In this document: positions 679 through 62,247 of the stretch, in pieces
How positions within the stretch are numbered: the first letter of the stretch is position 1
How the letters are laid out: every line of letters begins with the position of its first letter
Translations under genes and position numbers: made by a program
Notes under the pieces: generated by a model
The model's database searches: none
Told to the model about the DNA's origin: nothing
The model's input: only the letters and a program-made list of their open reading frames with translations
IMG/VR virus record: IMGVR_UViG_3300026551_000002
Strand: one strand, 5' to 3'
Length of the DNA stretch: 64,000 nucleotides
Source of the DNA: an uncultured virus (IMG/VR IMGVR_UViG_3300026551_000002)
Lineage: Duplodnaviria; Heunggongvirae; Uroviricota; Caudoviricetes

Positions 679-794
679 GTAAGTCCCCCTGCTCTCCCTT
701 TGCAAGGGGACAAAACCAGACACATGATTGGAGCATGTGCTAGGTTAGCCTTTATATTAGCATACAAGCCTATTTAAAGCCTATCCTGAGCACA

Positions 795-1811
795 ATGAAA
801 AGTGAAAGGAATAGGTTTTTTGTTATGCATCGTAGAAAAATGCGAGTTGGCAGTTTTATTGGTATCTTAGTGCTTGGTTTGATGGTTCTAGCGCTACTGA
901 TTTATACAGCAACGAGAACGCTTCATTTTCTTCAGATGACTTTTCCGCCTGATATGCAGTATGTTGCGTATCTTGCTCTTGTGGCTTTTGACGTGGGCAT
1001 TTTAGGTTGGACACTTTTTGCAACTACAGCTGCGGAGGGCGCTCCCCAACGAGCTATTGCGTATTCAATGATCTTTGTTTGTGTTGTGGGCGTGGTCGTT
1101 GCCACGATTGCTGATACAGCATTGGTAAGTCAACAGAATGGCATAACGAAAGCTCCCCCCAATATTGCAACCATTGGAATGTGGGGTTCAATTATTGTCA
1201 TTGTACTGAATGTTGTGGCTGGGATATGCACTCATCTTTTCTCTCCTTCTCACATGCGTAAGTTTGAATTGGAGAGTGTGCATGATGAGATCCATCAACT
1301 TACCATTGATCATATCAAATCACGCGCTCGTGACATTATGCCACAACTTGCTGCTGAGAATGCCGAGCATTGGGTACGCCAAACCATGTCTGAAGTTGTG
1401 GGTACTTTGCCACATAATGCTAATCAGCAACTCCTTCCTGCTCGTGTAGTTGAGTCTGATGCTTCTAAGCCAGTAGCACAAGCCGCATCGCGCACTCATA
1501 CGGTTGATCCTCACAAAGTCAAGCCTCAAGTTGATGATGAAGCTAAACCACTGGAGAAGCCAAAGTCATTTGGTCAGATGCTCGGAAACGTTCATGCTGG
1601 CATCCATAATGCCATTGATAAGCGACTTGATGGCAGTAAATCTGTTCCAATTGAACGTACTGAGGATGAGTACTCCCCTGAGTTTGAGCAAGCACTTGAT
1701 AATGAGATTGAAAAACCTGCTCAAGGCAAGAAGACTACGGTTTTTGTCAAGCATGATGATACTTCTAGATTGGAAGCTCATGAAGATTTAGGAGGTGATC
1801 GAAACCCTTAG
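795..1811 (+). CDS. Membrane protein, about 4 TM helices and a low-complexity tail
   Basis: Four hydrophobic segments in the N-terminal half; no family recognised. Confidence 0.7.
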   Translation: MKSERNRFFVMHRRKMRVGSFIGILVLGLMVLALLIYTATRTLHFLQMTFPPDMQYVAYLALVAFDVGILGWTLFATTAAEGAPQRAIAYSMIFVCVVGVVVATIADTALVSQQNGITKAPPNIATIGMWGSIIVIVLNVVAGICTHLFSPSHMRKFELESVHDEIHQLTIDHIKSRARDIMPQLAAENAEHWVRQTMSEVVGTLPHNANQQLLPARVVESDASKPVAQAASRTHTVDPHKVKPQVDDEAKPLEKPKSFGQMLGNVHAGIHNAIDKRLDGSKSVPIERTEDEYSPEFEQALDNEIEKPAQGKKTTVFVKHDDTSRLEAHEDLGGDRNP

Positions 1812-2140
1812 CAAGCTCTATTGAAATAGGCCAATCAGTAGAGCAGAAAGTTAGTTCTCCGATAGTTTCCCCTTCTTCTGAAAAAAAGAAACTTTCAGGA
1901 GAAGGGAGCAAGGGTAGGTTAAAAGCCTTTTTTGAAACGATTGATCTTTTGCAATCAGTTCGAGAGGCTAAAGGAGAATGGCCCAATGGAATGTCAGTTC
2001 GTATGCAGTATTATTACAAACACAACTACCAGGAGTACTTTCACAATGGAAAACGAGCGGAGCAAACAAGGTTTGAAAGAGAACGAAAAGCCGAAAGAAT
2101 TAGGGCAGAAGACAAACCAAGAACAAAGAAGGTTCGATAG
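1799..2140 (+). other. Open -1 frame overlapping the stop of 795..1811; possible frameshift extension
   Basis: Frame opens after TGA at 1796-1798; A AAC CCT at 1802-1808; no nearby ATG. Confidence 0.45.
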
Positions 2141-2399
2141 GATACGTGATCTTTTGTATCTTGAGTTTAGTTTTGATGGTATTGAGTACATAAGCATTTA
2201 TCGTGCAATTCCACCTCAAATAGACAGATTGGCTAATATGTACTTTGATGTTTCGGGCATTGATGTAAATGTCTGGCCTGTATGGGATCGGCTTGATTTG
2301 GTGAATGCATTGTGGGATTTTTGTCAGGAATTAGGACGTGAATTTCCGCTTCGAATCAAAGAGCAGCCAAATCGTTCTGTAGTGCCGTCTGATCAGTAG
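2046..2399 (+). CDS. Hypothetical protein
   Basis: ORF; ATG at 2046 preferred over the track start. Confidence 0.55.
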   Translation: MENERSKQGLKENEKPKELGQKTNQEQRRFDRIRDLLYLEFSFDGIEYISIYRAIPPQIDRLANMYFDVSGIDVNVWPVWDRLDLVNALWDFCQELGREFPLRIKEQPNRSVVPSDQ

Positions 2400-2458
2400 A
2401 GAAAATTTACAATTAAATTTACACTCGTGTAAATTTTTTTCAGAAGAGGGAGAAAGAA

Positions 2459-4111: not shown

Positions 4112-4139
4112 CCTAACCCCCTTGCACGGGGAATAGATC

Positions 4140-4165
4140 GAGAGGTATAAAAGCCTCTCTTTTTT
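4140..4165 (+). terminator. Intrinsic terminator before the packaging operon
   Basis: GAGAGG/CCTCTC stem plus T6. Confidence 0.65.
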
Positions 4166-4280
4166 GTGTTCAAAATCTGGTGAATAGTTATGGGCACTTT
4201 CAAAACTGTTGATAAATGGTGTATACTCTGTCTATGGATGTATGTGGTAAGCCAACAAATCCCAACATTGTTATGCGTGT

Positions 4281-4850: not shown

Positions 4851-5091
4851 AATAATGCGGTATTTTCCTGTTGGCAGGAGAGTCTATTGTGATTATATGG
4901 AAGGAGAGCCATCCTATCGTTTTCGTAAAGTATTTGGGCAAGTGGAAGAGATTAGAGATTCTATTTTATGTGTGAGATCGGAAGAAGTTCCAAATACTAT
5001 GCTTGATTATGACTTTCTTTTAATTCATTTGAGTATTCATTCTCCTGTTATGCCTACTGAAATGGCTGTTGAATATGAACAGTCTAAATAG
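4837..5091 (+). CDS. Hypothetical protein between terS and terL
   Basis: ORF overlapping both neighbours. Confidence 0.55.
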   Translation: MEKDEIMRYFPVGRRVYCDYMEGEPSYRFRKVFGQVEEIRDSILCVRSEEVPNTMLDYDFLLIHLSIHSPVMPTEMAVEYEQSK

Positions 5092-10663: not shown

Positions 10664-10973
10664 TGGAATAGAAGTAACGCTTAGTTGGGAGTCACCACTT
10701 CCCGTCGATGATTTACCAACAGTACAAGCATACGTGTTGCTTAAAAGCCTTGGTATATCGAATGACTCTATCATGCGCAAGCTTGGCTATGATCCTGAAG
10801 AGGAAATGAAGAAGTCAGCAGAGGAGGATGCTCAGGCAATGGCAAATAATCCTTTAGCTCAGCAGTTGCCACCTACAGAACCGGGAGTTGCAGGACTCCC
10901 AGGACAACCACCTGGAACGCAATCAACCCCCTTGCAAGGGGGAAATCAACAACAGAATGGAGGGCAACAATAG
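10656..10973 (+). CDS. Portal protein, C-terminal part
   Basis: IEVTLSWESPLPVD...GISNDSIMRKLGYDPEEE is the typical SPP1-like portal C-terminus. Confidence 0.8.
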   Translation: MSDGIEVTLSWESPLPVDDLPTVQAYVLLKSLGISNDSIMRKLGYDPEEEMKKSAEEDAQAMANNPLAQQLPPTEPGVAGLPGQPPGTQSTPLQGGNQQQNGGQQ

Positions 10974-11706: not shown

Positions 11707-12605
11707 ATGGCAAAAAATGATGATACTGTACAAGTACCTGCAATAAGGCCTGTGAAAGTTGAGCCACAACCGGAGCCAACTTTTGTAGAGAAGCTTGAAG
11801 CTTTGATGAACCATGCAGTGCAGCAATCTATCCCTGCCAAAGGAGAGCAAGCTACAGAGCATCACCATCATTATGCACAAGTGGCGAATGCTCTTGGTGA
11901 TTTATGGCGCGAGGTGAAATCTCATGTCAGATGAATTGGTAGACTTCAAAGTTGAGCGGCCTGATTGTCATCATATGCAGACAATCTTTGCACGACCTCA
12001 GCAATCTATTGCAGACTACAATGCACGTCTTGTACCTGAACTTCGAGAGGCTATTCAAAAGCCTTGCGAACAGTGTGCAGAGGAGAAAGCAAAGCTAGCA
12101 AAGCAAAAACTTGATCAGGATTTGAGGGCAAAGAAATGAATGTAAAGTATACAGAAAGCCTTGAAACAAGAGTAGAAAAGCTTGAAAAGGCTTTAAAGGG
12201 TAAGGTTTCATCTGGCAAGACAATCACGGTAGAAAGAGATTTCTTTGAGCATTTATTGAATTGTATGGCAAATCAAAAGTACTTGCCTACGTTGGGCGCT
12301 TCTAATCATATGTCAGAAAGAGAAAAGGAACATCAAAAGGTAATTGATACTGCATATCACAAGGCTAGGGAGTTGCTATCCCCCATGCAAGGGGAGGAGC
12401 CAAAATGACACCTGAAGATCTTGCCAAGCTTTTATTTGAGATTGGTCATCAAGTGGCATCGAATGTGGATGGTGTTGAGTTTTTGATTATTTGGGAGCAA
12501 ATGCCTGAAGAGGCGAAAGCTTTCAAAATTGCAGTAGCAACAGAGTTTCTAAATCGATATGTGTTTGTTCCTGTAGATAAATTTGATGTATCAATGTTAC
12601 GTTGA
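11707..12605 (+). other. Four small hypothetical ORFs
   Basis: Coupled ORFs 11707-11934, 11924-12139, 12136-12408, 12405-12605. Confidence 0.55.
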
Positions 12606-16551: not shown

Positions 16552-16581
16552 TACTCTAACCACCTTGCAAGGGGAATTGAT

Positions 16582-19523: not shown

Positions 19524-21692
19524 TTGCCAGTACTAGCGACCATGGTAGTTGAATATGTAGCAGAAACATCAGGATTAGGCAATGCTGTAACAGCACTTGC
19601 TGCTCTTGGCGTTGCTGCTGCTGGTGTTGCTGCTGTATCTGTCAAGATGGCTGGTGATTTTGAGCAAGGAGTAACGAGATTAAAAACAGGCGCGGGTGAT
19701 GTCACTGACAACATGGCAACAATGGGCAAGGGTATTCTCGCAACATCTGTTGCTACGGGAGTACTTACCAATGGAGCTGAGGGTCTTAATTCTGCTATGT
19801 ATCTCATTATTTCATCTGGTCAACGTGGGGGACAAGCTCTTGATACGTTAAAAGTTGCATCCGAAGGTGCTCAAATTGAACAAGCAAATGTAGTGGAGGT
19901 GGCAAATACACTCAGTGGAGTAATGACTAACTATGGGACAAAAACATTTAATGCTACGCAATATATGAATGGACTTATTACTGCTGTACAGCAAGGTAAA
20001 ATTACGCTGGAGGACCTGGCAGTTTCTATGGGGCCTGTTGATCCAATTGCTCAATCTCTAGGAATTTCCTTTAATGATATGGCAGCAGCTATGACGACAC
20101 AAACGAATGCTATGATACCTGCTGCTCGTGCTGCAACTGGATTGCGTTTTATGATGATGGCACTTGAAAATCCTACAGGCAAGGCCAAAGATGAGATGAA
20201 GTTATTAGGGTTGAATAGTGTTGCCGTTGCCGATGAAATGAAAGTGAGTCTTCCAGGCGCATTGCAGATGATAGCTGATGCAGCAAAGAAAGTGGGACCG
20301 GAGGGAAGTGTGCCATTTAACAGAGCTGTTGCAGATATGGTAGGAGGTTTGCGGTCACTTTCGACATTTTCAGCGTTGACGGGCGATCATATGAAAGATT
20401 TTACAAAGAATTCGGCTCTTATTCTTGATGCTATGCAGAAAAATAAGAATGCTGTACTTGGATGGGAGACGGCGCAATCAAACTTCAATATTAAAATGGA
20501 TCAAGCAAAAGCTGCTGTAGCATCTGTAGCTATTCAGCTAGGAACATTGTTACTTCCTGCACTTGGCAATCTACTCACTGCAATAACACCTCTTATTGTT
20601 GCCTTTGGCAGTTGGGTTACATCAGGAAAAGCTGCCCACGACATCATGGATAAGCTGAAGCCAATTATTGATTATCTTAAGCCAAAATTTGAAGCATTAG
20701 GGACTGCACTCCAGCATCTAGGACAAGTTCTCTTGCCACTCATTTCTAATACAACATTTTGGCATATCGCTTTAACTATTCTTACTGTTGCTATTGGGCT
20801 TGTTACCGATGCTCTTACTCTTGTGATTAATATTGTTACAAGTGTTGTTCAATGGTTTGAAAAGAATAAATTAGCTGCCGATGCTCTAAAAGCTGTCCTT
20901 TTAGCTGCTGCCTTTGTTATTGGGGTTCCTCTTGTTATTGCGTTTGGCGCTTGGGCGGTTGCTGCTCTTGCTGCTGGTGCTGCAACTCTTTTTGCTATGT
21001 GGCCTGTTTTGTTAGCAATCGGAATTATTGCACTTATCATCCTGGCTATTATGCACTGGGGGGATATTATGAACTGGATAGGGTGGTTGATAGGAACGGT
21101 TTGTCATGCGATAGGAGATTTCTTTACATGGCTATTCCATTTTTTGATAGGGGGATCAGTTATTCCAGATATTGTAAATGGTGCAATATCGTGGTTTACA
21201 AATCTTTTAAATAGTATTGGTAACATATTTAACAATATAGTAAGTACAATTAAAAATGTATGGAATACTATTGTAAGTGATGCATTAAGTGCAGGTGCCA
21301 ATATTTGTAAAGCTATTGGAACGGGAATAACAAATGCTATTCATTTTGTCACTGATGCTGTCACAAACGTGACTTCTTGGATATCTGCACATCTCCCCCA
21401 CTCTCCTGCTAAAGTTGGACCTCTTGTGGGTCTTCAACAACAAGGTACTGAGATTAGTAACCAGATTGCCCAGGGAATGCTTGCAGGTACACCACTGCTT
21501 ACAGGTGCTATGAATAACCTCACGAAGCCCATTTCACTAGGATTGAAAGGTACAGCAACCACAGGCACCCCCCTGCAAGGGGGGAATCATGGTGATACGT
21601 ACATCACCATCACTCTTGATGGAAAAGACATCACCAATAGCACAATGAAGCGTGTTCAGAAAGAGTTGAGAGGACATGGTTTGAAAAAATGA
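19524..21692 (+). CDS. Tape measure protein (TP901-like core)
   Basis: Ala-rich helical; AATGLRFMM..LENPT; W/F-periodic repeats; PHSPAKVGPL. Confidence 0.9.
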   Translation: MPVLATMVVEYVAETSGLGNAVTALAALGVAAAGVAAVSVKMAGDFEQGVTRLKTGAGDVTDNMATMGKGILATSVATGVLTNGAEGLNSAMYLIISSGQRGGQALDTLKVASEGAQIEQANVVEVANTLSGVMTNYGTKTFNATQYMNGLITAVQQGKITLEDLAVSMGPVDPIAQSLGISFNDMAAAMTTQTNAMIPAARAATGLRFMMMALENPTGKAKDEMKLLGLNSVAVADEMKVSLPGALQMIADAAKKVGPEGSVPFNRAVADMVGGLRSLSTFSALTGDHMKDFTKNSALILDAMQKNKNAVLGWETAQSNFNIKMDQAKAAVASVAIQLGTLLLPALGNLLTAITPLIVAFGSWVTSGKAAHDIMDKLKPIIDYLKPKFEALGTALQHLGQVLLPLISNTTFWHIALTILTVAIGLVTDALTLVINIVTSVVQWFEKNKLAADALKAVLLAAAFVIGVPLVIAFGAWAVAALAAGAATLFAMWPVLLAIGIIALIILAIMHWGDIMNWIGWLIGTVCHAIGDFFTWLFHFLIGGSVIPDIVNGAISWFTNLLNSIGNIFNNIVSTIKNVWNTIVSDALSAGANICKAIGTGITNAIHFVTDAVTNVTSWISAHLPHSPAKVGPLVGLQQQGTEISNQIAQGMLAGTPLLTGAMNNLTKPISLGLKGTATTGTPLQGGNHGDTYITITLDGKDITNSTMKRVQKELRGHGLKK

Positions 21693-24600: not shown

Positions 24601-26944
24601 TGTTCAGAATGTGAATGGATTTGATATTATCTTTGTAAGTGCAGATGAAACAACACAATTAAATCATGAAATAGAAAATTATAATGCATCTACTGGTGAA
24701 ATAGAAATGTATGTGTTAATACCAACACTATCCCATACCGTAGATACCATAATTTGGATATATTTCTGTAATCCTGGTATATCAACAACTCAAGAGCATG
24801 TAACTGCTGTATGGGATAGCAATTATAAAGCTGTCTGGCATATGGATGAGGCTACTGGAGCAAACCAAAGTGACTCAACTTCTAATGCTGTAACAGCTAC
24901 ACAGCACAACTCCCCCTTGCAAGGGGCTGGTCAAATTGATGGAAGTCTTACGTTTGATGGATTAACACAATATCTTAGTGTAGCGCATGGGGCTGTAACA
25001 GATATTATAGGTGATAAGACGGTTGAGGTATGGGTAAACACAGATTCTTTTGCGCTTGATGCTAATGGTTCTGATCCAAGGATATTAATCAATAATATTG
25101 ATGGTACCAATGTCTATCAATTTGTGTTGGATGCTGCTGGAGGAGGGACAATTGCTTTTGCTGTGAATGACTCAACAGGACAGCATATTATAAGCAATCA
25201 AACATGGCCTACTGGTAATTGGCTTATGTTGCAAGGTACATATACGGCATCCACTCATGCGGTAACACTTGATGTTAATGGAGTGACAGTTCCCAATAAT
25301 GGAAGTCTTTCTCTATCAATAGGTACATCTTCTCTTTTTAATATTGGAAGACGTACTGATGGATTTGGATATTATCTTGGTTTGGAAGATGAAATACGAA
25401 TATCAAATAGCGTGCGAACTGCTGGTTGGAGAACAACATCTTTTAACAATCAAAGTTCTCCCTCTACATTTCTCTCCCTTGGAGCACTTACATTTCAACC
25501 AACAACTTCTACCAAAGATGGTGATTGGATTTTTGACACTGATCAAGTCGATTGCGGAGGGATTGTCTGGAGACAGACAGACGCTAGCAATTTCTACGAG
25601 CTTGATATCTTTGATGCATCCTCCAGTGCAGGATCAACCAATGCTTTGAAATTATATAAGGTTGTGGCAAATGTCAAGACTCAGATCGGCGCTACAATTG
25701 CTATCACGTTTGTACGAGGTGTAGCATACCGCGCTCGGGTGACAATGGTAGGCACTGCCATCACTATCTGGTTTGATGGATCTATTGTTTTGACTGCAAC
25801 TGATAGTGCTCTAGCTGGTCCTGGCAAGTCTGGCATGATCAATGTTTCTGGCAATGCCCATTTTTATAACTTCAGAATGCAGCCTCTTGGGCAATCTCTC
25901 GCAGGCGTCAACCTTTATAGCAAAGTCACATTAACTTCAACAGATCCAACAGTCACGCCTCAATTAACAGATTTAACGCTTGTAGCACTTCATCCCAATA
26001 TTGCACTTGGTCCAATTATTCCAACGGTCAACTATAAAAGAACCTACCTCTCAGCAAATATGGATGATATAGCCAAGAAAGCCAATTGGACATGGCAAAT
26101 CGATCCTAATCTTAATATGTTGGCTGGTCCTAGAATTGCCATTCCTGCTCCTTGGATACTTACATCAAAGGATGTGCTCTATCCAGACGATGGGAGCGCG
26201 TCGCTTTCAGTTGAGAATTCAGGAGATCTCTATAGAAATAGGGAGATCTTAACAGGTGTATTAGCAACAATGGCAATGAGTGAGAAACATCCAGGTGATG
26301 GAAAATCAACTTCCTGGACACTCAAGTTTCCTGTAGTTGGACAAACCCCGACAATTTTTCTCAATGGAGAAGTAAAAACCATCGGTCAAAAAGGTATCGA
26401 TATAGGGAAAGATTTCTATTATGCCCTTGGTAGCACGTCGCTTGCTCAAGATTCATCAGGGACAATTCTCCAGTCTAATATTGATAGTTTCACCATTAGC
26501 TACACAGGCCAATTCACAACGGAGGTTGTGCGTAACAACACCGGTCAATTTCCAGGTACGACTTCACAGACACAGTACGCGGCTCTCACAGGCGGCTCAG
26601 GCATTGTTGAGAATGTTGAAGACATAACAGCCATGCAGCTTGATGTACCCTCTGCAAATGCCTATGGAGATGGGTTGCTTCAAAAGAATGGGGTGATTGG
26701 TCGCACACTTATCTTTAAAACCAATCGCACGGGACTCTCAGTAGGTCAATATATTGCCGTGTTCATTCCTGAGCATAAATTAAACGACGCGGCTATGCTC
26801 ATCACAAATATGGATCTTCATCCAGAAATAACCCTTGTAGGCAATCAAGCATCGATGCTCTACTACTGGCAAATAACGTGTGTAGAGGGACCATCACTTG
26901 GTTCTTGGCAAAAGACATTAGTGCAAGCTTTAAATGGGAGTTGA
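21689..26944 (+). CDS. Large baseplate/tail-tip protein with inserted lectin-like (concanavalin/LamG, DUF2341-like) domains
   Basis: 1751 aa after TMP; WHRLKVLVVG..G.IGL, DIIFVSADETTQLNHEIE, AVWHMDE, DEIRISN. Confidence 0.82.
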   Translation: MSVLTFTIQIVGVTYDIKEGSFDFNPQVEQRSKLTFTVLDPTNVFSFQKGQQVTLTDSASTIKFTGTVSTALRYRIGTGTMMHHDIVCDDMHQAADERTTNKIYINQNAGVIVAGMVNDTISSEGVTANYAIREDNTQVEFSQGTLNGLVATINLGGDLELASAGSQVTIFENTGSIFGQGTLVNCQVSGNTLIPIPTPTIKFVGTESLTQDGNAYAYIEILSSGSIGIISGRYLEYDIWIDPKSPEIKSGVDIICTDGTTLRDSVGGNPYPYGDDQNIPPHPKYDQQGYADGKWRHRKFLLDNLSGKTISHVDVVFEGDKGGTYTTYIKNIYETDGTSVVNTFFNGTFNVNPPRQLQNSGYSNVSISIVNTYDCYSLSQRVSPSYSIDAAKIIRNSFLNWIATNPAGTNTLMEYSIDGGNSYITCTNNAALPSLLAGLSVAGFSIQFRQTFQQTSGASPETPPVLSFMEAVINPSYTATKSDVKLSASTTGEWNAGTLTNTQVNNGVLSLLGAVRNWSGADLSGMTIFGNKGTGPGTNLNQHVNYKSFWIGMGISIEGRSRLDFLGSWQDFLLEVDLYLDVSFGINGIVYRTTGWSNWDSDYAYAVQAIQGNPGSVSLQKGSNTSASSDGTRTQIVIASVPIATGGWHRLKVLVVGSNHKIYIDDVLYINQNDSTYTAAGNIGLRTSNVSSSAGYQGQFNNLGVTVTGLSGTWVSASTSLTSVGTYGNSVVTWKDVSINPQSTTILVESTVNGGSTWQTCTNGGPIPNLTAGQSLSGVNLQLRVTLSTQSAAIMPQIQYLVCRVLGQFNSTGTRIAPVLSLAPALICGSATASWNVVTPPNTSFALATSLDNITYSGIFGLLGVVISGLVTQPLPILDTFATNDSPAYAHLARTGGSASTWTWDTANSRVTASGGSNDMQLYTGVWFNTGYQVKKQIIIDHTKVVGGADLSNYPLLVSFIDPNLVIPSGFVQNVNGFDIIFVSADETTQLNHEIENYNASTGEIEMYVLIPTLSHTVDTIIWIYFCNPGISTTQEHVTAVWDSNYKAVWHMDEATGANQSDSTSNAVTATQHNSPLQGAGQIDGSLTFDGLTQYLSVAHGAVTDIIGDKTVEVWVNTDSFALDANGSDPRILINNIDGTNVYQFVLDAAGGGTIAFAVNDSTGQHIISNQTWPTGNWLMLQGTYTASTHAVTLDVNGVTVPNNGSLSLSIGTSSLFNIGRRTDGFGYYLGLEDEIRISNSVRTAGWRTTSFNNQSSPSTFLSLGALTFQPTTSTKDGDWIFDTDQVDCGGIVWRQTDASNFYELDIFDASSSAGSTNALKLYKVVANVKTQIGATIAITFVRGVAYRARVTMVGTAITIWFDGSIVLTATDSALAGPGKSGMINVSGNAHFYNFRMQPLGQSLAGVNLYSKVTLTSTDPTVTPQLTDLTLVALHPNIALGPIIPTVNYKRTYLSANMDDIAKKANWTWQIDPNLNMLAGPRIAIPAPWILTSKDVLYPDDGSASLSVENSGDLYRNREILTGVLATMAMSEKHPGDGKSTSWTLKFPVVGQTPTIFLNGEVKTIGQKGIDIGKDFYYALGSTSLAQDSSGTILQSNIDSFTISYTGQFTTEVVRNNTGQFPGTTSQTQYAALTGGSGIVENVEDITAMQLDVPSANAYGDGLLQKNGVIGRTLIFKTNRTGLSVGQYIAVFIPEHKLNDAAMLITNMDLHPEITLVGNQASMLYYWQITCVEGPSLGSWQKTLVQALNGS

Positions 26945-27506
26945 TACTATGACACTCCAATCAGATCAACAAGATATAGCAGATGCTGAGGCAGCTTTAG
27001 TTGCTCTAGGACCGCTCTCATCAAGCAATTTTGATCAAGCACTTGTGCAGCTTCGTAAACGAAAGCAAGCTCAGGATGATATTGCCAAGATTCAAGGAAA
27101 TCAGTTTTCAACTGATGGCTTTAACTTGATTTCTCAGGTTCAAACAGCAGGAGCCCAGACTGATAAGGTTGTGGTGATATCAAAGTTCTTGCGAACATTT
27201 GCAGAATACATTGCAACTGAAACACAAGCGTTAGAAGGGACTCATCCTACTGTAAAGTCAATTGTAGATGCAATTCCTCCAATGGGGAATACACCATAAT
27301 CCCTTGCAAGGGGAGAAAGAGGCGATATGAGAAGATATGTACCAAGAGTAATTGGGGGACCTGTGTTTTTGTCAAATATGACTGGTAAGAGATATGTCCC
27401 AAGGGTTGTTGGAGGAATTATCCCATTGCCTTCTCCACTCATTCCAATTGATATAAATGTTACTTTTTATACACGTAGTGGTGATATAATATTATACGAG
27501 AGGTGA
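26934..27506 (+). other. Two small tail-region ORFs (26934-27299; 27327-27506 with two RYVPRVxGG repeats)
   Basis: Both are ORFs in the late direction; the second is not in the track. Confidence 0.5.
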
Positions 27507-27509
27507 TGT

Positions 27510-27866
27510 ATGACGACTGTGATACCTGTAGATGATTATAGTCCTATTTTTGTGGGCGATACTTCAAACCCATTTTCTATCTATGTTGCACATAAAAATG
27601 GGTTTATGAGTATATTAGGTACTACTATTACAATGAAGTTGTTTAATACTGCAACAAATACCATTAAAACATGTACAGGACCCTGGACAATTGACTCTAG
27701 AGATAATGGAAAAGCTTCTTATGTATATCAATCTGTTGATGTTGATACTGTTGGCAGTAGTCAAATATGGATTAAAATCATGTTAGGAGGAAAACCTGTA
27801 CATGTAGATGACGGAACTGGTAATCCTAAGGTACTTGTAGTAAATGCACTTCCCGTAGGAGTGTAA
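27510..27866 (+). CDS. BppU-like baseplate adaptor protein
   Basis: IFVGDT...GKASYVYQSVDVDTVG pattern. Confidence 0.6.
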   Translation: MTTVIPVDDYSPIFVGDTSNPFSIYVAHKNGFMSILGTTITMKLFNTATNTIKTCTGPWTIDSRDNGKASYVYQSVDVDTVGSSQIWIKIMLGGKPVHVDDGTGNPKVLVVNALPVGV

Positions 27867-27892
27867 CCCATGCAAGGGGGAAGGAGAGTATT

Positions 27893-35292: not shown

Positions 35293-35390
35293 ATTGCAAA
35301 CTGCCCTATACTTTCCGCCTATCCCTGTCTTCACCAGATGGCAGAGAAACCACCTTGCAAGGGGAGAGTGGTATTCTGCAATCTCTCCAT

Positions 35391-35996: not shown

Positions 35997-36911
35997 TTAC
36001 CTCCTAAGCAAAACATCATAATCTATCGGAAATACAAAAGACTTAGAAAATGGGATTAACGTCCATTCGTTAGGGCTGTACTGGATATGCGGATTCAATA
36101 TAGCTCTACTTGGACACAAAATAATTTCGTGGGGGTAGTCCCCAAGCGCTTGATAGAAACGGTCTACAGTTTCCTCTACCAATTGATTAGCAGAGGACAC
36201 AAGATCAGTAACTTTAAAGCATCGTCTGCCATCCTCATCGATATAGAATCGCTTAGGGATTGCTGGTAGTGACCTTGAGGTTGTAGCCATTGAAACTGTT
36301 GGAGTATCAGCAATAGCTGGCAGTTTGCCAGTATTGCGCTCGTGCAAGTCTAGCAGGAAAGTGGTGATGTCTCCTCCTGCTTGCACAAATCTAAATAGGT
36401 CATGTGGGCTCATGGTGTCTCCTCTCCTAAAAGCTTGGATGTTTTTTCTTGAAGATCTTCCAATGTAGAATTCGAAACAACTTCAAAAAGACTACTCCAA
36501 TCTTTTATCAATTCTTCAAGATTTGCAATGTGATCAATATATTGATCACATTGACGCCTGTAGTAGTCTGCTTCCTTTTTTACTTTATCAAACAAGCTAT
36601 TAATAGCTTCAATGCGTTTGACAGGATCTTTAGTTACAGCAGCCATAGCAATTTGCTCACTCTCCCCCTTGCAAGGGGGAGAGTGGCTCTAGTAGTCCCG
36701 TCTCGGTAAAGCTTTGGAGATAGGGCAGTAGAGCTTTGATATCCTTCTGTGTGAACTTGAAATAGTCATTATCAGTATCAAAGAACAGAAGTTTTGTACT
36801 TTTTCCTTGCTTTGAACGCTCTTCTACCCACATGCTTAAATCACTTGCTGATTGATCAACAAATTCAATCATTTGATTGCCTGAAGTTGTTTTACTCTGT
36901 TCAATCTCCAT
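35997..36911 (-). other. Three hypothetical ORFs: 35997-36413, 36410-36646, 36657-36911
   Basis: Coupled leftward ORFs. Confidence 0.55.
36658..36685. repeat. Perfect 28-bp palindrome; longest member of the CCCCTTGCAAGGGG family
   Basis: CACTCTCCCCCTTGCAAGGGGGAGAGTG. Confidence 0.95.
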
Positions 36912-38206: not shown

Positions 38207-39124
38207 TTACCAATCAGTGATGGTGTCGTCAAGAGGCTCTTCTGCTACAGGAGCAGATTTAAGATGCTTTCCAAAGTCTACTCCTTTGCCATTATTCTTA
38301 GTCAACTCAAAATCACTATCTGACATGTTCTCCTCAAAAGGATTATCATCTGAAGCTTTCCCCTTGCGGGGGGCATCCTCAAAAGGATTGCTATTATCCT
38401 CTGAAACCTTGGGCGGACAAAATGCGATGATCCGCTCATACATTGACTGTTCCGTCACCTGGGCTGATATAGCCTTGATCCTGTCATGCATAGGCTTTGC
38501 GTTCTTGTGAATAGGCTGGAAGTTCTTTTCACTTCCTTCACCAATCTGCTCAATCGTAAAATCGCACTCATTAAGCAAACAATTATCAGGATCATTTGGA
38601 AACTTCCTGAAGTAATGGAAGAGAGGTCCAACTCTACCAAACGGAGTCAATTCTAGAAGTCGGACAACTCCTTTTACTTCTTTCTCTACCTTAGAACCAT
38701 CTTCTTGCTTCTCTTCATACGTGACAATATTATTTTTCGAATCTGTCACCTGATATACATAGACAGGCAAAAAGAACCACTCACCAGCAGTCAACTTCTT
38801 GTTCTCCTTTGCCATCTCGCAATAGAGACAAGGCTTTGCTGGCTCTAATTCACAGGCACAAATTGATGAGATGTTCAAATCTCTGTCCTTATTCCACTGA
38901 TTGTGCTTCATCAACTTGACGCCGCCTGACAATCGAGGGCATAGAGGACGGATTAAAGCTTTATGCCCTGGTTTCAACCATAAGAATAAAGGCTTTTTTC
39001 CACCAGCCTTAGCTGCTTTCGCTGCTTCAGCAGCCTTTTCTGCTCTTTCGGTTGCTCTGTCAAAAGCCTCTTCTGCTGGCATGTGTCGTAAACTTTGCAT
39101 TTTCTTTCTTTCTTGCCTAGACAT
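38207..39124 (-). CDS. Putative ssDNA-binding protein (gp32-like)
   Basis: LKPGHKALIRPL, CxC...CLYC, acidic tail; adjacent to the exonuclease. Confidence 0.6.
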   Translation of the reverse strand: MSRQERKKMQSLRHMPAEEAFDRATERAEKAAEAAKAAKAGGKKPLFLWLKPGHKALIRPLCPRLSGGVKLMKHNQWNKDRDLNISSICACELEPAKPCLYCEMAKENKKLTAGEWFFLPVYVYQVTDSKNNIVTYEEKQEDGSKVEKEVKGVVRLLELTPFGRVGPLFHYFRKFPNDPDNCLLNECDFTIEQIGEGSEKNFQPIHKNAKPMHDRIKAISAQVTEQSMYERIIAFCPPKVSEDNSNPFEDAPRKGKASDDNPFEENMSDSDFELTKNNGKGVDFGKHLKSAPVAEEPLDDTITDW

Positions 39125-43110: not shown

Positions 43111-44493
43111 TTATTTTTTCTTGCTGAGTGCTTGTTTCGTCACCCATTCCCCCCATACCTCTTCGCAGGGACAATTCTTGTTAAGGCAAATACCAGGAGC
43201 AAGATGAGATTCAATATGCCCTTGTATTGTCAAAGCTTTCATGTCTGCTTCGGGCCCATACCATTTTGTATGAGCAAATGCCCCATCAAGCATCTGTAAA
43301 TCCCTTTTTGTCCAAGGTTTCAAGCGATTGCGAGCTTGAAGCAAAGACACTTCTCCCCCTGCAAGGGGGTTGACAGGTTCACCGGCTTGCAGGGGTAGGG
43401 CAAAAGGGAGTGTGTATTCTCTCTGAGTAGCTATACCAGCTTCTACCCATTCCCTCAAACTACATTCCCATCGATCAGATAAGAACTTCTTCAGCAGGAT
43501 ATCGTTTGGATCTTTGGCAACATACGGGCTCCAACGCTGGCATTTCTCTTTCAGAGTTTGCATCCAGTACTCTGATCCTATGTCACCCGAGTCGTCCTCA
43601 TCGAAGGATTGGAGCACACAAGAGGCTAATTGTAACTCTGCTAGCCATCTGGAGAGACGACCGCGTGTTGTCGATCCTGTGGCTACACAGGACACCAGGT
43701 CTCCTGCCTCTTGCTCCACTGACATTGCGCATATTTCAGACTCAACCATCATGACTGGAAAGTCACACTGGATTTCTCCAACGTTGAAAAGCCCTTCACC
43801 GCTCCCAATTACCTGACCATAGTCTTTTCCCTTTGGCTGATCAGGACGTTTGAGAGCTAATCTCCAAAGCGTACTACCTTCAAACCAGGGGATAAGGATA
43901 CCATTTGGAACACGCACTTTATCCTTGGCTACCTGCTCAGGATCTAGTCCCCAGTCTTCCAATTCTGACTCATAATATTTGCCATCTTTCTGGAGAGGGA
44001 CATAGCCAAGCTTCTTTTTCTTGATGATTTCATCACCGAGGCCTCGACTATGCAGATAGTCAAGAGCATCCTTGCCAGTAGGAGACCATAAGCACCTTGC
44101 AGCACGCTCCACAAGCAGCTTGCCTGTCTCCTGCCACTGTTTATTAGGTGGATCTTCTTTGCTATCCTGTTGAGATATAGAGGGGCTGGGGGGAACAAAA
44201 TCACCATTAATTTCAAGTCCTAGCACTTCTAATGCCTCCTGATGACTCATATTGCAGTACTCCTTTAAAAAATCATATGCATCTCCATGGCGTCCGCAAC
44301 CACTTGACCTGATAGCATGTGAATAATCACCTAGTTCTGGACGCATTATGAAACTATCCTTACTTCCAGGGCAAAATGGACAATTAGAGTGGTATTCGAG
44401 CACTCCATGTACAGTAGCCTTACCAACAATATCAATACTGGCATAATGTTGAATTAAACTTAAAATATCCCATCGCTGTGATACTGTAGGCAT
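43111..44493 (-). CDS. DNA primase (zinc finger plus TOPRIM-like)
   Basis: CPFC...GCGRHGD, ALDYLHSRGL, VESEIC, FDEDDSG, KDPND. Confidence 0.82.
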   Translation of the reverse strand: MPTVSQRWDILSLIQHYASIDIVGKATVHGVLEYHSNCPFCPGSKDSFIMRPELGDYSHAIRSSGCGRHGDAYDFLKEYCNMSHQEALEVLGLEINGDFVPPSPSISQQDSKEDPPNKQWQETGKLLVERAARCLWSPTGKDALDYLHSRGLGDEIIKKKKLGYVPLQKDGKYYESELEDWGLDPEQVAKDKVRVPNGILIPWFEGSTLWRLALKRPDQPKGKDYGQVIGSGEGLFNVGEIQCDFPVMMVESEICAMSVEQEAGDLVSCVATGSTTRGRLSRWLAELQLASCVLQSFDEDDSGDIGSEYWMQTLKEKCQRWSPYVAKDPNDILLKKFLSDRWECSLREWVEAGIATQREYTLPFALPLQAGEPVNPLAGGEVSLLQARNRLKPWTKRDLQMLDGAFAHTKWYGPEADMKALTIQGHIESHLAPGICLNKNCPCEEVWGEWVTKQALSKKK

Positions 44494-48149: not shown

Positions 48150-48613
48150 TCCCCAATCCTTTCTGTACACACTCTCACGCTAATTTCACAGCGCGGATTA
48201 TCTCTATCTGCCCATTTCTCAATAGGCAACCGTACAACTAAATTGTCATTCAAATCTAAATACTTAAATACCACATCTTGCACTGCTTTTATACCTCCAT
48301 CAATATCTCTCTTCCATAATGTCTTAAAGTAAAAATCAATACTAAAATCCAATGGAATATGCTGTTTACTTATTCTAATAGCATCAACAACATTCCAATT
48401 CTTCACTACTGCTTTATCAGTAGAATATGCTAAAACCATTAATGCATCTTGTTTGAATTGCTTCAATTCCACTGAGGAAAAGAATTGTGCTCCATGATTT
48501 GTGTTATAAGAACCATTAATCCCTGGAGGAAGTGGCAACGTTGCCACTAGGAACGGCTCTATAGGCCAATTCACCCCTTGCAAGGGGGATTTGGGTTTAG
48601 CTCGTGTGGGCAT
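48146..48613 (-). CDS. rusA: RusA-family Holliday junction resolvase
   Basis: LPPGIN, RDIDGGIKAVQD, NDNLV. Confidence 0.82.
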   Translation of the reverse strand: MPTRAKPKSPLQGVNWPIEPFLVATLPLPPGINGSYNTNHGAQFFSSVELKQFKQDALMVLAYSTDKAVVKNWNVVDAIRISKQHIPLDFSIDFYFKTLWKRDIDGGIKAVQDVVFKYLDLNDNLVVRLPIEKWADRDNPRCEISVRVCTERIGE

Positions 48614-54425: not shown

Positions 54426-54672
54426 CCCTGGCTGGCGATGCCAACAAGAAAAACTGCATACACATCGCCAGCCATAGCCTTGCCCAATATTCTACCAGAA
54501 TACATGCTCCAAAACTAGTCCCTAATCTTTCCCCATGCAAGGGGTTATGGAGGGGCATTTTGTTTGGGCAAAGTTGGTGGATAGTTGTGGGCAATCACCA
54601 AATTGTGTTAATAGTACTGGTTAGTTTGCAACTTGACTCATACTGTGTTATAATAATGTCAGGAGGTTAAAA

Positions 54673-55657: not shown

Positions 55658-55850
55658 TTTACCGGAGCCAATAAAACATCAGTCAAGGGACCTGGAAGGA
55701 GACGGGTCCCTTTTTGTTGCCATCAAAGTTACACAAGGTATTCCCCTCGCAAGGTGGTATGCAAACTATCCTATACCGTTGACAACTGAACAATAATATT
55801 CTAAAATGTTCGATACTATTTACAGCTTCCAACGAACAAGGGATAGAGCC

Positions 55851-59923: not shown

Positions 59924-60055
59924 GATACATCTCCTAAGCTGATGTGTCCACGCCTCCGGTTGTTTCAGCAACGCGGGGGCAAAACCATATTTATGAGATT
60001 ATTATACCACACTATAGAGCAGTTTGCAACAATATCATTCATACTAAAACCTTCT

Positions 60056-60092: not shown

Positions 60093-60131
60093 ACAAATAA
60101 CAGTTATAACAGTTCATAGAAAGGATGGCCA

Positions 60132-60302
60132 ATGAACACTCAAATCTCAAAACCGGAACCTCCAGTTGTGCAGTCAATCCGGTTCCCTCGTGACCTTTGG
60201 AATGAACTTCAAAAAAAAGCAGGTGAAGGATCATTCAATAAAATTGTTATTCGTGTACTCCAAGCCCAAATTGAACAAGAGAAAAAGGAAAAAGCATCAT
60301 GA
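60132..60302 (+). CDS. Ribbon-helix-helix protein (not in ORF track)
   Basis: VVQSIRFPRDLWNELQKKAGEGSFNKIVIRVL. Confidence 0.65.
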   Translation: MNTQISKPEPPVVQSIRFPRDLWNELQKKAGEGSFNKIVIRVLQAQIEQEKKEKAS

Positions 60303-60616
60303 CGAAACAGTGGGGAGATCTCACTCTTCTAGAGCAAAGAAAGCGTGAACTTTTAGCCAGTGAAGGAATTGTTTGTGGACAATGCGGTAAATCTGTCTCT
60401 TCGATAGTCTACTGGTGTGATGATTGCCAGAAACAACACGAGCAAGAATGTGAAACTGATATCCATGAAAATCGTTCTTATGACGAAAATGGAGAAGAAC
60501 ACATTCAACTCATCAAAAATGATACAGGTGAACTTCTAGACGAATTCACAACCGTATCACTCCACGATGATCCTACATCAGAACAATTACAAGCAATGCT
60601 TGATTGGGCAAATTAA
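60299..60616 (+). CDS. Small zinc-finger protein
   Basis: CGQC...CDDC. Confidence 0.55.
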   Translation: MTKQWGDLTLLEQRKRELLASEGIVCGQCGKSVSSIVYWCDDCQKQHEQECETDIHENRSYDENGEEHIQLIKNDTGELLDEFTTVSLHDDPTSEQLQAMLDWAN

Positions 60617-60636
60617 ACAAAAGAAAGAGGTAGATA

Positions 60637-62247
60637 ATGCTCAAAACAGTTTTTCAACCATCCACATATCAAAGGGCAATCTTCCAAGCTGTAAAAGATG
60701 GAGAAAAATCCCTAGTAATCACCGCTTGCCCTGGCAGTGGCAAAACAACTACCATTCAACAGATCATACGTTACATTCCTGCCAATGCAACTGTACTCAT
60801 GGTAGCATTTAATGTCGAAGCATCTAGGCAACTTCAATCAAAAGTTGATGATATCTCAAGAGCAATGCATGATGAAAACATGGCTACACCTCTGGTGAAT
60901 TGCTCAACTATCCACAGCCTTGGCAACCAAACAATTAGCTCTGCTGGCATTCGCGGACAAGCCAAAGGTTATAAGTATTCAAAAATTGCTAAAGAATACC
61001 TTCAATCGCAAGGTGTCTTTGACAAGAATACTCCCCAAGATCTTACAGATTTATGCGACAAAGTACGCTTGACACTTTCCTCATTTCAAAAGCCAGATGG
61101 AGAAATCGATGAAGCTGTTCTGCAAAACCTTTGTGATCGATTTGAAATTGAGTTTGACGAGAAATACAAACAAATTTGCTTCAATGCGGTTCCAAAGATC
61201 TTGAAAGTCGGTATTGATCAAGCCCGCATAGGAAACATCGACTTCACAGATATGATTTGGCTTCCTGCAATTTTAGAATTGCAACCACGCCGATATGACC
61301 ATGTTCTAGTAGACGAGGCACAAGATCTAAATCCTGCACAACTTGCACTGGTATTAAAAGCCAGAAAACCAAATGGAAGATTTATAGCAGTGGGAGATGT
61401 CAATCAAGCCATATATGGCTTTGCAGGAGCATCTCTTGAAAGCATTCAAGAAATTATTGAAGCAACAGATGCCAATACACTGCCTCTCTCAATCTGCTAT
61501 CGTTGCCCAACATCGGCTATCCAGAAGGCAGCATCAATCTATTCAGGGATTGAAGCCGCGCCCAATATGCCCAAAGGGGAAATCAGAACAATTTTAGACA
61601 AAGACATAACAGATTTAGCACGGCCAGGTGACTTGATCCTTAGTCGCTGCACAGCACCACTAGTAAGCCTTTGTCTTGAACTTCTTCGAGATGGCAAACG
61701 TGCCACGATACGTGGGCGTGATTTGGGCAAGTCTCTCGGCAAAGCAATTGATCAAATCAAAAAATATTGGCAACAAGTCCAATACGGTCAACTTAGTATT
61801 GATGATTTGCCAATAGCAACAGGGATGTTTCTTAGTGCCCAACTAGACTCCCTGCAAGGGGATGGTCATGAAATGAAGCGTGCAAACTTGCAAGATAAGA
61901 TTGACACGCTCTTATGTCTTCTAAGTCACTACACAGCTAACCATACCCACAAAAGCCTTGAAGGGTTCCAAGAATACATCATCAATTTTTTTGAAGAGGA
62001 TAAAAATGCCCAGATCATCCTTGCAACTGGACATAGAGCCAAAGGGCTAGAATATCCTCGCGTATTCATTGTTAGCTCTAACAAGCAACCTCATCCTCTT
62101 GCAAAAACATCTGAAGCAATCACACAAGAGTATAACCTAATGTACGTCATGTACACCAGGGTACTCTATCAAGCACACACCAATGGAAGCGGCACACTAT
62201 TCCTAGGAATTGACGAAAACTTCCAAAGAATAGAAGAATCATACTAA
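60637..62247 (+). CDS. UvrD/Rep-like SF1 helicase
   Basis: ACPGSGKTT, VDEAQD, VGDVNQAIYGFAGA, YRCP, HRAKGLEY, YVMYTR. Confidence 0.95.
   Translation: MLKTVFQPSTYQRAIFQAVKDGEKSLVITACPGSGKTTTIQQIIRYIPANATVLMVAFNVEASRQLQSKVDDISRAMHDENMATPLVNCSTIHSLGNQTISSAGIRGQAKGYKYSKIAKEYLQSQGVFDKNTPQDLTDLCDKVRLTLSSFQKPDGEIDEAVLQNLCDRFEIEFDEKYKQICFNAVPKILKVGIDQARIGNIDFTDMIWLPAILELQPRRYDHVLVDEAQDLNPAQLALVLKARKPNGRFIAVGDVNQAIYGFAGASLESIQEIIEATDANTLPLSICYRCPTSAIQKAASIYSGIEAAPNMPKGEIRTILDKDITDLARPGDLILSRCTAPLVSLCLELLRDGKRATIRGRDLGKSLGKAIDQIKKYWQQVQYGQLSIDDLPIATGMFLSAQLDSLQGDGHEMKRANLQDKIDTLLCLLSHYTANHTHKSLEGFQEYIINFFEEDKNAQIILATGHRAKGLEYPRVFIVSSNKQPHPLAKTSEAITQEYNLMYVMYTRVLYQAHTNGSGTLFLGIDENFQRIEESY

Follow-up and report, generated by a model that had tools for sequence, protein, structure and literature searches.

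An iterated, phage-specific palindrome dispersed through the genomes of uncultured soil phages and placed beside the integrase gene

Background

What does a 14-bp palindrome do when it recurs throughout a phage genome, inside genes as well as between them? The question is raised by the IMG/VR record IMGVR_UViG_3300026551_000002, an uncultured virus of the Caudoviricetes, of which a stretch of 64,000 nucleotides (hereafter the window) was analysed. The palindrome, CCCCTTGCAAGGGG, had been noticed in a first-pass annotation of the sequence, which listed 18 copies and took them for a selected protein-binding site, such as a stoperator-like repressor site, a host signal of the parS, KOPS or nucleoid type, a HIP1-like methylation site or a recombination hot spot. 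Iterated genome-wide palindromes have previously been described in a few cultured actinobacteriophages. Here the phenomenon is found in soil phages that are uncultured and probably infect another phylum. The word has survived deep divergence as well as shifts of reading frame, another word takes its place in a related phage, and the copies are tied to a concrete landmark, the putative attP core and the integrase start, which could settle what such repeats do.

Copies of the palindrome in the window

All 18 copies were reproduced at the coordinates and with the sequences first reported. Four of them (at 10928, 24913, 36665 and 48574) were exact, whereas none of 100 dinucleotide shuffles of the window contained any exact copy. 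At up to 2 mismatches there were 18 copies against a shuffle mean of 0.17 and a maximum of 2, which bears out the earlier statement that the word is far above chance. The half-site counts were also as first given, with 15 copies of GCAAGGGG and 6 of CCCCTTGC on the + strand. All copies of GCAAGGGG in the window fall within the 18 sites, and therefore there are no lone half-sites. Ten sites lie in coding sequences (CDSs) and eight are intergenic, the open reading frame (ORF) at 10656-10973 being counted for the copy at 10928. The P-L-Q-G reading described as frequent was found in the form x-P/T/S-L/M-Q-G in eight of the ten CDS copies. Two more copies were present in the approximately 1.5 kb of the phage that is absent from the window, as read in contig C120 of the window's own assembly (G000).

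Occurrence in related phages and in bacterial genomes

An exact scan of IMG/VR for the 14-mer identified 121 stretches, 80 of them among the matches listed. Five relatives, G001 to G005, carried 25, 11, 8, 30 and 20 sites, respectively, at up to 2 mismatches, and the reversed control word gave 0. Of 47 further records with at least one exact copy, 43 carried 1-3 copies of the 12-mer CCCTTGCAAGGG (up to 1 mismatch) and four carried 8-18; one of these four, G042, was the window's own phage (99-100% protein identity). Three more motif-rich contigs (G090, G115 and G120) were found by protein search. The motif-rich set comprised 12 distinct contigs of 596,834 bases in all (GC 41-51%), with 221 sites and 8-30 per contig, so the enrichment in related phages that had been put forward as a check was seen in 11 viral contigs besides the window. 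The proteins that these contigs have in common with the window showed 30-80% identity. Because the contigs are kin, significance is overstated in tests that span them; the records put several at 32-85% completeness, so that a gene missing from one of these fragments is weak evidence. The motif-poor relatives, 36 sources of 731 kb in total, held 10 sites. The word ranked first or nearly so among the over-represented 10-mers of all six genomes examined at the outset.

The palindrome belongs to the phage and not to the host. In assembly G000, 18 sites (up to 2 mismatches) lay in the two phage contigs and 1 in the other 1,512,859 bases. The 12-mer occurred 0-1 times in each of 30 relatives of the bin (genomes of 0.5-1.1 Mb) and, at a frequency like that of the reversed control word, 0-2 times in 400 of the 401 Chloroflexota genomes; 48 of these genomes, including the unpublished G295, had a match. 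The half-site GCAAGGGG was counted 33 times on both strands of the non-phage contigs of the bin, where a rough hand estimate of chance was approximately 24. The exception among the Chloroflexota was G152, a 7.2-Mb genome with 9 copies of the 12-mer, mostly on two small contigs. One of these, G152:C145 (L240; 8.3 kb), held 10 sites (up to 2 mismatches) on DNA that also encodes integrase fragments, a Uma2 nuclease-like protein and Bro-N, and its density of 1.2 sites/kb was far above that of any phage contig.

Selection at the DNA level

Within genes, the excess was compared with a codon-preserving null, as the first-pass annotation had advised. The shuffle means (100 shuffles each) were 1.83 for the window (maximum 5), 1.81 for G005, 1.16 for G001, 1.06 for G004, 0.99 for G002 and 0.79 for G003, and the observed CDS sites in the same test numbered 12, 14, 19, 18, 7 and 4, respectively. 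The CDS sites were far over this null; therefore, the encoded proteins do not explain the excess. Reading frames were used unevenly, with 88 sites read as x-P-L-Q-G, 39 as P-L-A-R-G and 21 as P-C-K-G (chi-square p 3e-11), which reads as the cheapest way to encode the word.

Several copies were found at aligned places in relatives. The site in the endolysin gene was present within 2 mismatches in G050, L164/G090, G005, G045 and G042, and with 3 mismatches in G002. It was diverged in the motif-poor L169, L173, L167 and L176, whose endolysins are equally similar, and also in the motif-rich G004; in the motif-poor L178 the corresponding place was 4 mismatches away. The C-end of the tape measure gene carried a site in the window, G050, G002, G045 and G004. 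In the C-terminal linker of the primase, the site was read P-L-A-(R/G)-G in the window, G005 and G050 (frame 0), and P-L-Q-G in G001 and G004 (frame 2), approximately 10 codons away in the alignment. In the linker, the word persists through a change of reading frame. Many other sites were not common to relatives, so there is turnover too. Several breakpoints of the mosaic blocks between relatives, taken by inspection from a block table, lay 0-120 nt from sites.

Position relative to the putative attP core and the integrase gene

The window begins inside a tyrosine integrase gene, the C-terminal part of which lies at 2..442 on the + strand (Pfam Phage_integrase, 2e-17), with the gene start, the putative attP core and three further copies of the motif just outside the window. 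This region was read instead from a sister strain in C120 of G000, where the full gene is at 5576-6607. Upstream copies with 1 mismatch each were centred at -37 and -642 from the start codon, and a copy with 3 mismatches lay near -325. Site centres were found at -14, -358 and -621 in G001, at -12, -361 and -620 in G004, at -36, -400 and -591 in G120, at -9, -338 and -719 in G115, at -1, -814 and -975 in G045 and at -33 in G005, the contig of which starts at -120. A second, 298-aa integrase-like gene in G120 and G005 had a site at -82. Overall, a site was centred 1-82 nt before the start in eight of nine complete integrase genes with upstream DNA (seven full-length genes and the 298-aa paralogue in G005 and G120). 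In G003 the sites were at -241, -723 and -872, so that the nearest was at -241. Upstream of the integrase genes there were 24 sites in 9,260 bp (2.6/kb), against 0.41/kb in the same contigs, with a Poisson P of 3e-12 that overstates independence because the lineages are related.

An alignment of these upstream regions showed a conserved 42-base block 40-90 nt upstream of the integrase-proximal site in the window's lineage, G120, G004 and G045, and other tRNA-like blocks at the same place in G001 and G115. In C120 the block is at 5450-5491 (G000:C120:5450-5491), approximately 85 nt upstream of the integrase start. ARAGORN found no whole tRNA in the regions upstream of the integrase. In two bacterial genomes, the block is found within a tRNA-Arg(CCG) gene, of which it forms the 3' portion, starting in the anticodon loop and ending at the acceptor end; it is therefore read as the likely attP core. 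Sites were present on both arms of this putative core in C120, starting at 5532, 5244 (3 mismatches) and 4927, or about +41, -206 (weak) and -523 from it. In each lineage studied, one site lies between the core and the integrase start, and one or two further sites are 200-600 bp off on the far side.

The putative core also bears on the host. It matched 6 of 401 Chloroflexota genomes with 0-3 mismatches, exactly in G323 and with 2 mismatches in Dictyobacter alpinus and D. vulcani, and had no match in 40 relatives of the bin; within the bin it occurred in the phage contig only. Of the 25 contigs of at least 20 kb, none was further from the bin mean in tetranucleotide composition than C10, which represents most of the phage. 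The rest of the bin had no match to the phage and no att-like match, and the phage contigs contained no tRNA gene. From the pattern of core matches, the composition of C10 and the absence of matches in the bin, it follows that the phage was probably mis-binned into a small-genome bin and that a Chloroflexota host is more likely, two groups only having been compared and tRNA genes being conserved. The core would thus correct the host assignment of the phage. No motif copies were found beside the matching tRNA-Arg genes or fragment of G323 and G314, and no integrated prophage was found there.

Anatomy and distribution of the sites

A symmetrised profile of the sites had an invariant CCTTG half-core followed by a nearly fixed C; the outermost C was strong in the subgroup to which the window belongs, less so in G001 and G004. 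The central 10 bp, CCTTGCAAGG, are thus the invariant core, of which CCCCTTGCAAGGGG is the full form. Across nine genomes, 123 of the 140 copies of CTTGCAAG sat inside CCTTGCAAGG, and TGCA and TTGCAA occurred at expectation. A methylation site of 4-6 bp is unlikely because these short words are at expectation and the excess begins only at CTTGCAAG/CCTTGCAAGG. At the 123 exact-core sites, the observed and expected numbers of Watson-Crick pairs in the three flanking positions, taking columns as independent, were 74/76.5, 86/72.2 and 36/43.6. As the centre is conserved, the stem that the invariant 10-mer could form is very short and the flanks do not covary, the profile favours a dimer that recognises the duplex sequence over a hairpin.

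Sites were enriched outside called CDSs, the calls being simple longest-ORF picks: 73 of 221 (33%) lay there, against 9.1% of the sequence (3.6-fold; p 5e-23), and 148 lay inside CDSs. Within 60 nt of a gene boundary there were 45% of sites and 24% of random points. Spacing was more even than random in the window (coefficient of variation 0.52, P 0.004), G005, G050 and G002. Polarity had been proposed from the better-kept right half. It is real in the window, where 11 asymmetric copies on the + strand have the right half intact and 2 the left, but it is not general: among 126 asymmetric copies in the 12 contigs the better-kept half was divided 71:55 with respect to the + strand (not significant) and 75:51 with respect to the sense strand (p 0.04). 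A tight linkage to start codons, as for the start-associated sequences of Cluster K, was considered and rejected, since 61 of 165 sites (37%) and 27% of random points met the definition, a weak association. A promoter role was likewise set aside, as no copy lay at a predicted strong promoter within 48-64 kb, the stretch scanned.

Interpretation and alternative explanations

The reading that we favour, tentatively and with somewhat less than even confidence, is that the palindrome is the operator of a dimeric, sequence-specific DNA-binding protein of the phage lineage, like stoperators or the repeats of the Cluster O mycobacteriophages. A dimeric protein encoded by these phages would bind the duplex palindrome. 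Because one site lies between the putative attP core and the integrase start, with more beyond the core, binding there would most likely control integrase expression, and perhaps the recombination complex too. The other 15-30 copies, which are dispersed fairly evenly and enriched at gene junctions, would let the same protein act genome-wide in the manner of stoperators, for instance by blocking or silencing transcription in the prophage. The initial proposal of a selected protein-binding site thus holds as regards selection on the DNA and conservation in distant relatives, for which a stoperator-type site appears the best reading, and finds no support in its host-signal options; its suggestion of a recombination hot spot may still apply.

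Several observations weigh against an operator. Two thirds of the sites are inside genes, which is unusual for operators, and a repressor site unchanged across such diverged phages is also unusual, as immunity specificities usually drift. Spacing was not even in G001, G003, G004 and G045. Additionally, six candidate readers were tested by co-occurrence with the motif and none was supported. A protein with three helix-turn-helix (HTH) domains (44495-45172; A1) was present in the window, G001, G004, G005 and G045, but its closest relative is in G036, which has 0 sites and two tandem copies of the homologue. The highly conserved HTH_17 protein (51664-51963; A4) occurred in 42 viral loci, of which 8 were motif-rich and 34 had 0-1 sites. 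The primase (A3) has relatives at 53-57% identity in D. alpinus and D. vulcani, two genomes in which the 12-mer does not occur. The gp32-like ORF at 38207-39124 would be a single-strand binder, and so not a sequence reader, and has relatives in motif-free contigs. Nine of 11 motif-rich contigs had the ORF at 35997-36413, but so did 8 motif-poor sources, and the Atlas gave no usable lead for it. The nearest tracker of the motif was the ORF at 35496-35834 (6 of 11 motif-rich contigs, 0 of 36 motif-poor sources). The XRE and Arc-like proteins were not common to all motif-rich contigs, the XRE protein (54162-54425) having no homologue in the five relatives searched. A jackhmmer search (three rounds) of all window proteins against the 11 motif-rich contigs and 36 motif-poor sources identified no family that occurred in most of the motif-rich contigs and was missing from every motif-poor source.

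The landmark at the integrase gene could instead reflect a primary role in site-specific recombination, in which the copies on the attP arms would be accessory sites bound by a directionality factor or the integrase, and the dispersed copies would be secondary, for example sinks or aids to prophage compaction. We consider this unlikely. It would fit the sites on both sides of the putative tRNA-derived core in the window's lineage, the same three-site layout upstream of the integrase in G001, G004, G120 and G115 and the 10 sites beside integrase fragments in the 8.3 kb of G152:C145. Few proteins of the group are as well conserved as the integrase (52-58% identity when the most distant lineages are compared), and its gene gives the only nucleotide-level match between the window and G001. 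However, approximately 85-90% of sites are far from attP, in structural, lysis and replication genes, and are conserved there. The SAM-like core-binding domain of the integrase starts near residue 24, which leaves no room for a separate arm-binding domain, and G119, which encodes an integrase of the same family (E 7e-57), has no more than 2 sites in 26 kb. The integrase start of G119 carries a TGTCATGA-like near-palindrome, but there was no excess of this word in G119. It is similarly doubtful that the palindrome is a 'self' tag for the DNA-handling machinery of the phage, whether as a Chi-like attenuator of a helicase-nuclease, an initiation site for replication or recombination, or a protection against nuclease; a palindrome would work in either direction. 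The fairly even spacing of one site per 2-4 kb and the absence of the site from the bacterial DNA searched (the bin remainder and the Chloroflexota genomes) agree with such a tag. So does the gene content: in terminase, head, tail and lysis genes the motif-poor phages match the window at the same identities as the motif-rich ones, whereas only motif-rich loci were seen to have more closely similar genes for replication and recombination (Cas4-like exonuclease, SNF2 helicase and primase at 52% or more, RusA and several small ORFs). Yet the complete module is present at 35-46% identity in G098 and G100, where there are only 1-2 sites (2 in G098), and the two Dictyobacter genomes, which have a DUF3987 gene as well as the primase gene in this 53-57% identity range, lack the 12-mer. 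A Chi-like single-strand signal would need one half only, and no lone half-site is seen here; the fixed copy before the integrase would also be left unexplained. A bolder reading, which we regard as improbable, is that the palindrome serves a whole clade of temperate soil phages as a 'self' mark, specific to the lineage and with one phage-encoded reader, which would help to build or gate the integrase complex at attP and elsewhere bridge or coat the DNA like ParB/Noc-type or silencer proteins, sister lineages having swapped both word and reader (as with TGTCATGACA in G105, described below). If this were true, iterated palindromes would be a general, exchangeable identity system of phage genomes.

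The remaining explanations carry less weight. Spread by a mutational or repair bias, as has been proposed for HIP1, perhaps through methyltransferase-linked conversion of near-matches, would make the sites functionless. Sites are indeed written into coding DNA with codon tuning, a helicase-methyltransferase fusion is encoded in most motif-rich contigs and a related phage carries a different iterated palindrome, but a blind bias would not be expected to give a 3.6-fold enrichment outside CDSs or, in all lineages, a fixed position next to the putative attP core and the start of the integrase, the enriched unit of 10-14 bp is longer than usual methylase sites, and homologues of the methylase fusion are also present in 9 motif-poor sources; this account is decidedly improbable. 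Less probable still, and in our view very unlikely, is a hairpin in RNA or single-stranded DNA acting as a terminator, a processing or stabilising element, a cover for the ribosome-binding site or a target of the CsrA homologue. A GC-rich dyad in AT-rich DNA with enrichment at gene junctions has this appearance, four window copies precede start codons by 7-13 nt, AAGGGG was likened by inspection to a Shine-Dalgarno sequence, and the phage has a csrA gene and a copy, at 36665, that centres a 28-bp palindrome. The outer pairs nevertheless show no compensatory changes, and the invariant 10-mer would give only about 3 pairs round a 4-base loop that is the most conserved part of the site. The start-codon association is weak (37% against 27% of random points), a terminator scan of 48-64 kb flagged 1 of the 4 sites there (48574), and CsrA was found in 2 of 9 relatives examined (G001 and G005). 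Finally, a host signal copied by the phage, whether a chromosome-wide repeat, an uptake, segregation or Chi sequence or a box for a host transcription factor, is scarcely credible. Phages of one host group could have a host-imposed word, and the putative attP core indicates a common host phylum. The single copy in the other 1.51 Mb of the bin, the 0-1 copies of the 12-mer in the 30 bin relatives and the 0-2 copies in 400 of 401 Chloroflexota genomes run counter to this, as does the count of 0 in G323, the tRNA-Arg of which matches the core exactly; related phages from similar samples lack the motif. For the genomes searched, the host-signal reading is largely refuted, and with it the parS, KOPS or nucleoid signal and the HIP1-like host repeat that had been suggested.

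Comparison with known systems

HIP1 (GCGATCGC) of cyanobacteria is an 8-bp palindrome that occurs about once per kb in the host chromosome, is shared by mobile elements of the host and has no explained function. Like HIP1, the present palindrome is far above expectation in coding and non-coding DNA with codon tuning; unlike HIP1, it is 10-14 bp long, occurs once per 2-4 kb, is confined to phage and is not abundant in the host genomes searched. In the Streptomyces phage phiC31, a 17-bp inverted repeat bound by the phage repressor is present at over a dozen places, which are intergenic and in the early region. The palindrome differs from Chi, KOPS and parS in having no conserved polarity and no over-representation on host DNA, where the bin count of GCAAGGGG was 33 against the rough estimate of about 24. 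Copies are found on both attP arms, as with arm-type sites, but are not confined to attP.

The closest described analogue is the 17-bp dyad-symmetric repeat of Corndog and the other Cluster O mycobacteriophages, of which the cited accounts give approximately 30 copies per genome and 34 in Corndog (PMC4351075, PMC6439249). In one of these accounts, about a third of the repeats each lie between genes, near gene starts and inside genes; their orientation carries no meaning, the majority lie away from promoters, and the authors predict a DNA-binding protein that acts as a dimer while leaving the role unexplained (PMC4351075). As far as these descriptions go, a dyad-symmetric word in tens of copies, dispersed in and between genes, is common to both systems. 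The Cluster O word, TGTTCGGNNNCCGAACA (TGTTCGG-NNN-CCGAACA), has a 3-bp spacer whereas CCCCTTGCAAGGGG has none, so that the two are analogues and not the same element. The Cluster O hosts are Mycobacterium and the host here is probably a Chloroflexota bacterium; the Cluster O phages are given as five near-identical genomes with no integrase, while the present phages are temperate, their sites bracket attP and the integrase gene, and the word has lasted between lineages whose proteins are only 30-50% identical.

Stoperators, as presented in the cited work on the Cluster A phages L5 and Bxb1 and on relatives of Streptomyces phage R4, number more than 20 copies of a 13-14 bp site across a temperate genome, favour gene junctions and are thought to let one repressor silence the whole prophage (PMC9283540, PMC10276819). 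According to the same sources, they are asymmetric, bound by a monomer, oriented relative to transcription and situated in short intergenic gaps (PMC9283540, PMC10276819). The window's phage resembles these systems in having 18 + 2 copies of a 14-bp site over a temperate genome with an integrase, its relatives having 8-30. The site differs from stoperators in being a palindrome with no consistent orientation (75 of 126 on the sense strand, p 0.04) and perhaps also in its placement, 148 of the 221 sites being inside CDSs and 73 outside by the crude ORF picks used here. The element therefore belongs neither to the Cluster O repeats by sequence nor to the stoperators by asymmetry, but is the same kind of thing. 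A search of the literature for the motif strings and for palindromic phage repeats, within the collection covered, found no description of the element, the string matches listed being unrelated primers and similar and the search on repeats yielding, besides unrelated work, the Cluster O paper.

Individual sites in the window

The 18 sites are described here from left to right. The first, CCCTTTGCAAGGGG (1 mismatch; 696..709), is intergenic, 254 nt past the integrase stop and 85 nt before the ORF at 795-1811. The second, CCCCTTGCACGGGG (4118..4131), is 7 nt past the ORF at 3851-4111 and 150 nt before the small terminase gene; the same variant is found upstream of the small terminase gene of G005, at 3676. 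The exact site at 10928..10941 is read P-L-Q-G in the ORF at 10656-10973, the C-terminal piece of the portal, and the portal C-end also carries copies in G005 (7948) and G003 (9001). Site CCCCATGCAAGGGG at 12381..12394 is at the end of the ORF at 12136-12408 (P-M-Q-G), 10 nt ahead of the ATG at 12405, and CACCTTGCAAGGGG at 16561..16574 is intergenic, 7 nt ahead of the ATG of a tail completion gene at 16582. The tape measure gene contains CCCCCTGCAAGGGG (21569..21582) at codon 682 of 722 (P-L-Q-G). The exact site at 24913..24926 is read P-L-Q-G in the gene for the 1751-aa tail protein and was not kept at the aligned place in L163, L182 and G002. Two sites lie at gene junctions, each 13 nt ahead of a start codon: TCCCTTGCAAGGGG at 27300..27313, immediately past the stop of the ORF at 26934-27299 and before the ATG at 27327, and ACCCATGCAAGGGG at 27866..27879, which overlaps the stop of the ORF at 27510-27866 and precedes the ATG at 27893. 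The latter junction also carries a site in G002 (24802). The endolysin site, CACCTTGCAAGGGG (32177..32190), is read T-L-Q-G.

A second intergenic copy of CACCTTGCAAGGGG (35351..35364) lies in the convergent gap after the peptidase gene at 34540-35292, and its counterpart in G005 and G120 is the site 82 nt upstream of the second integrase-like gene. The exact site at 36665..36678, kept in G005, is at the end of the ORF at 36657-36911 (minus strand, P-L-Q-G). This copy centres a perfect 28-bp palindrome at 36658-36685 (CACTCTC, the motif and GAGAGTG) and is the only window copy with extended symmetry. On the minus strand, CCCCTTGCGGGGGG (2 mismatches; 38360..38373) is in the gene for the gp32-like single-strand-binding protein, CCCCCTGCAAGGGG (43355..43368) is in the C-terminal linker of the DnaG-type primase gene (P-L-A-G-G) and the exact site at 48574..48587 is at codon 9 of the RusA-like gene (P-L-Q-G). 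A further CCCCATGCAAGGGG site (54531..54544) occupies the gap between the XRE gene (54162-54425) and the Arc-like gene (54673-54867). The weak site CCCCTCGCAAGGTG (2 mismatches; 55743..55756) is 49 nt ahead of the HNH gene at 55806, and CTCCCTGCAAGGGG (2 mismatches; 61848..61861) is read S-L-Q-G in a UvrD-like helicase gene.

Extent and gene content of the window

Judged by its genes and contig matches, the window is nearly the whole of a temperate siphophage of approximately 65 kb. BLAST against its own assembly, G000, showed that C10 corresponds to 12818-59327 of the window and that C120 holds both window ends and bridges end to start; the map is therefore circular, at approximately 65.5 kb, with approximately 1.5 kb missing from the window. 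Flanking aligned stretches of C120 and the window had 99.8-100% identity. Positions 1-834 of the window had only 85% identity to C120, 835-1502 were unmatched and 11613-12817 were absent from G000. These differences (1-1502 and 11613-12817) indicate that two strains or mosaic variants of the phage exist. DNA of the window was also found in 4 soil metagenome runs from 3 studies, with no RNA run listed among them.

Gene functions were assigned from PHROGs and Pfam scans. The structural and lysis set comprised small and large terminase, portal, scaffold, major head protein, tail genes, tape measure, the 1751-aa tail protein, endolysin and holins. The large terminase is represented by two overlapping ORFs (5069-5821 and 5809-6594) and the portal by two pieces (8948-10204 and 10656-10973), with an HNH endonuclease gene between terminase and portal; a frameshift, an intervening element or a sequencing error could have caused these splits. 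Three paralogous HNH endonuclease genes and one endonuclease VII gene were identified (7935-8981, 55806-56717, 57963-58856 and 59459-59971), together with a 274-bp repeat at 85% identity (8702-8975 and 58577-58850). The section at 55.8-61.8 kb, which holds most of these genes, is among the three longest motif-free stretches.

A leftward replication and recombination module encodes a Cas4-like exonuclease, an SNF2-type helicase, a DnaG-type primase, a helicase-methylase fusion, RusA and the ORF at 38207-39124. Pfam and PHROGs gave no name for this last ORF, which reads as a gp32-like single-strand binder from its structure neighbours in the Atlas, its His/Cys3 pattern and its likeness to T4 gp32. 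The fusion of a helicase to an N6/N4 DNA methyltransferase (45148-47382, minus strand) adjoins a PAPS-reductase-like gene (47427-48170, minus strand), and the two are a possible DNA modification module. Regulators encoded in the window were of the XRE, Arc-like, HTH_17, Rha and Bro-N types. The CsrA homologue is at 35815-35994 on the minus strand (Pfam CsrA, 2.7e-21), with counterparts in G001 and G005. In G004, a gene at 3376-4326 (L129, minus strand) encodes a sigma-70 family protein with regions 1.2, 2, 3 and 4 and has two motif copies inside it.

A second word and other repeats

The related phage G105 (L228-L230; 46.7 kb), which has relatives of the window's large terminase, tail, 1751-aa protein, endolysin and holin genes, had 0 sites for CCCCTTGCAAGGGG. 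It carried instead 20 exact copies and 10 one-mismatch copies of TGTCATGACA across the contig, with 0 for the control. A different word in this phage fits lineage-specific readers. Several copies of TGTCATGACA were paired at 20-70 bp (26096/26119, 37001/37024, 44170/44190 and 46490/46560). G036 had 7 copies of GGATATCC in 25.6 kb, a weaker case.

Two repeats that had looked dispersed proved to be local. That of L178 was a local array, and that of L217, a phage with a relative of the ORF at 35997-36413, was a tandem array of 11-bp units (CTGAACAAGNN) at 5760-6120. G002 contained a 10-mer family, ACACGTACTATCAC, in 7 copies. The L217 array and the G002 repeats may be iterons of a replication origin.

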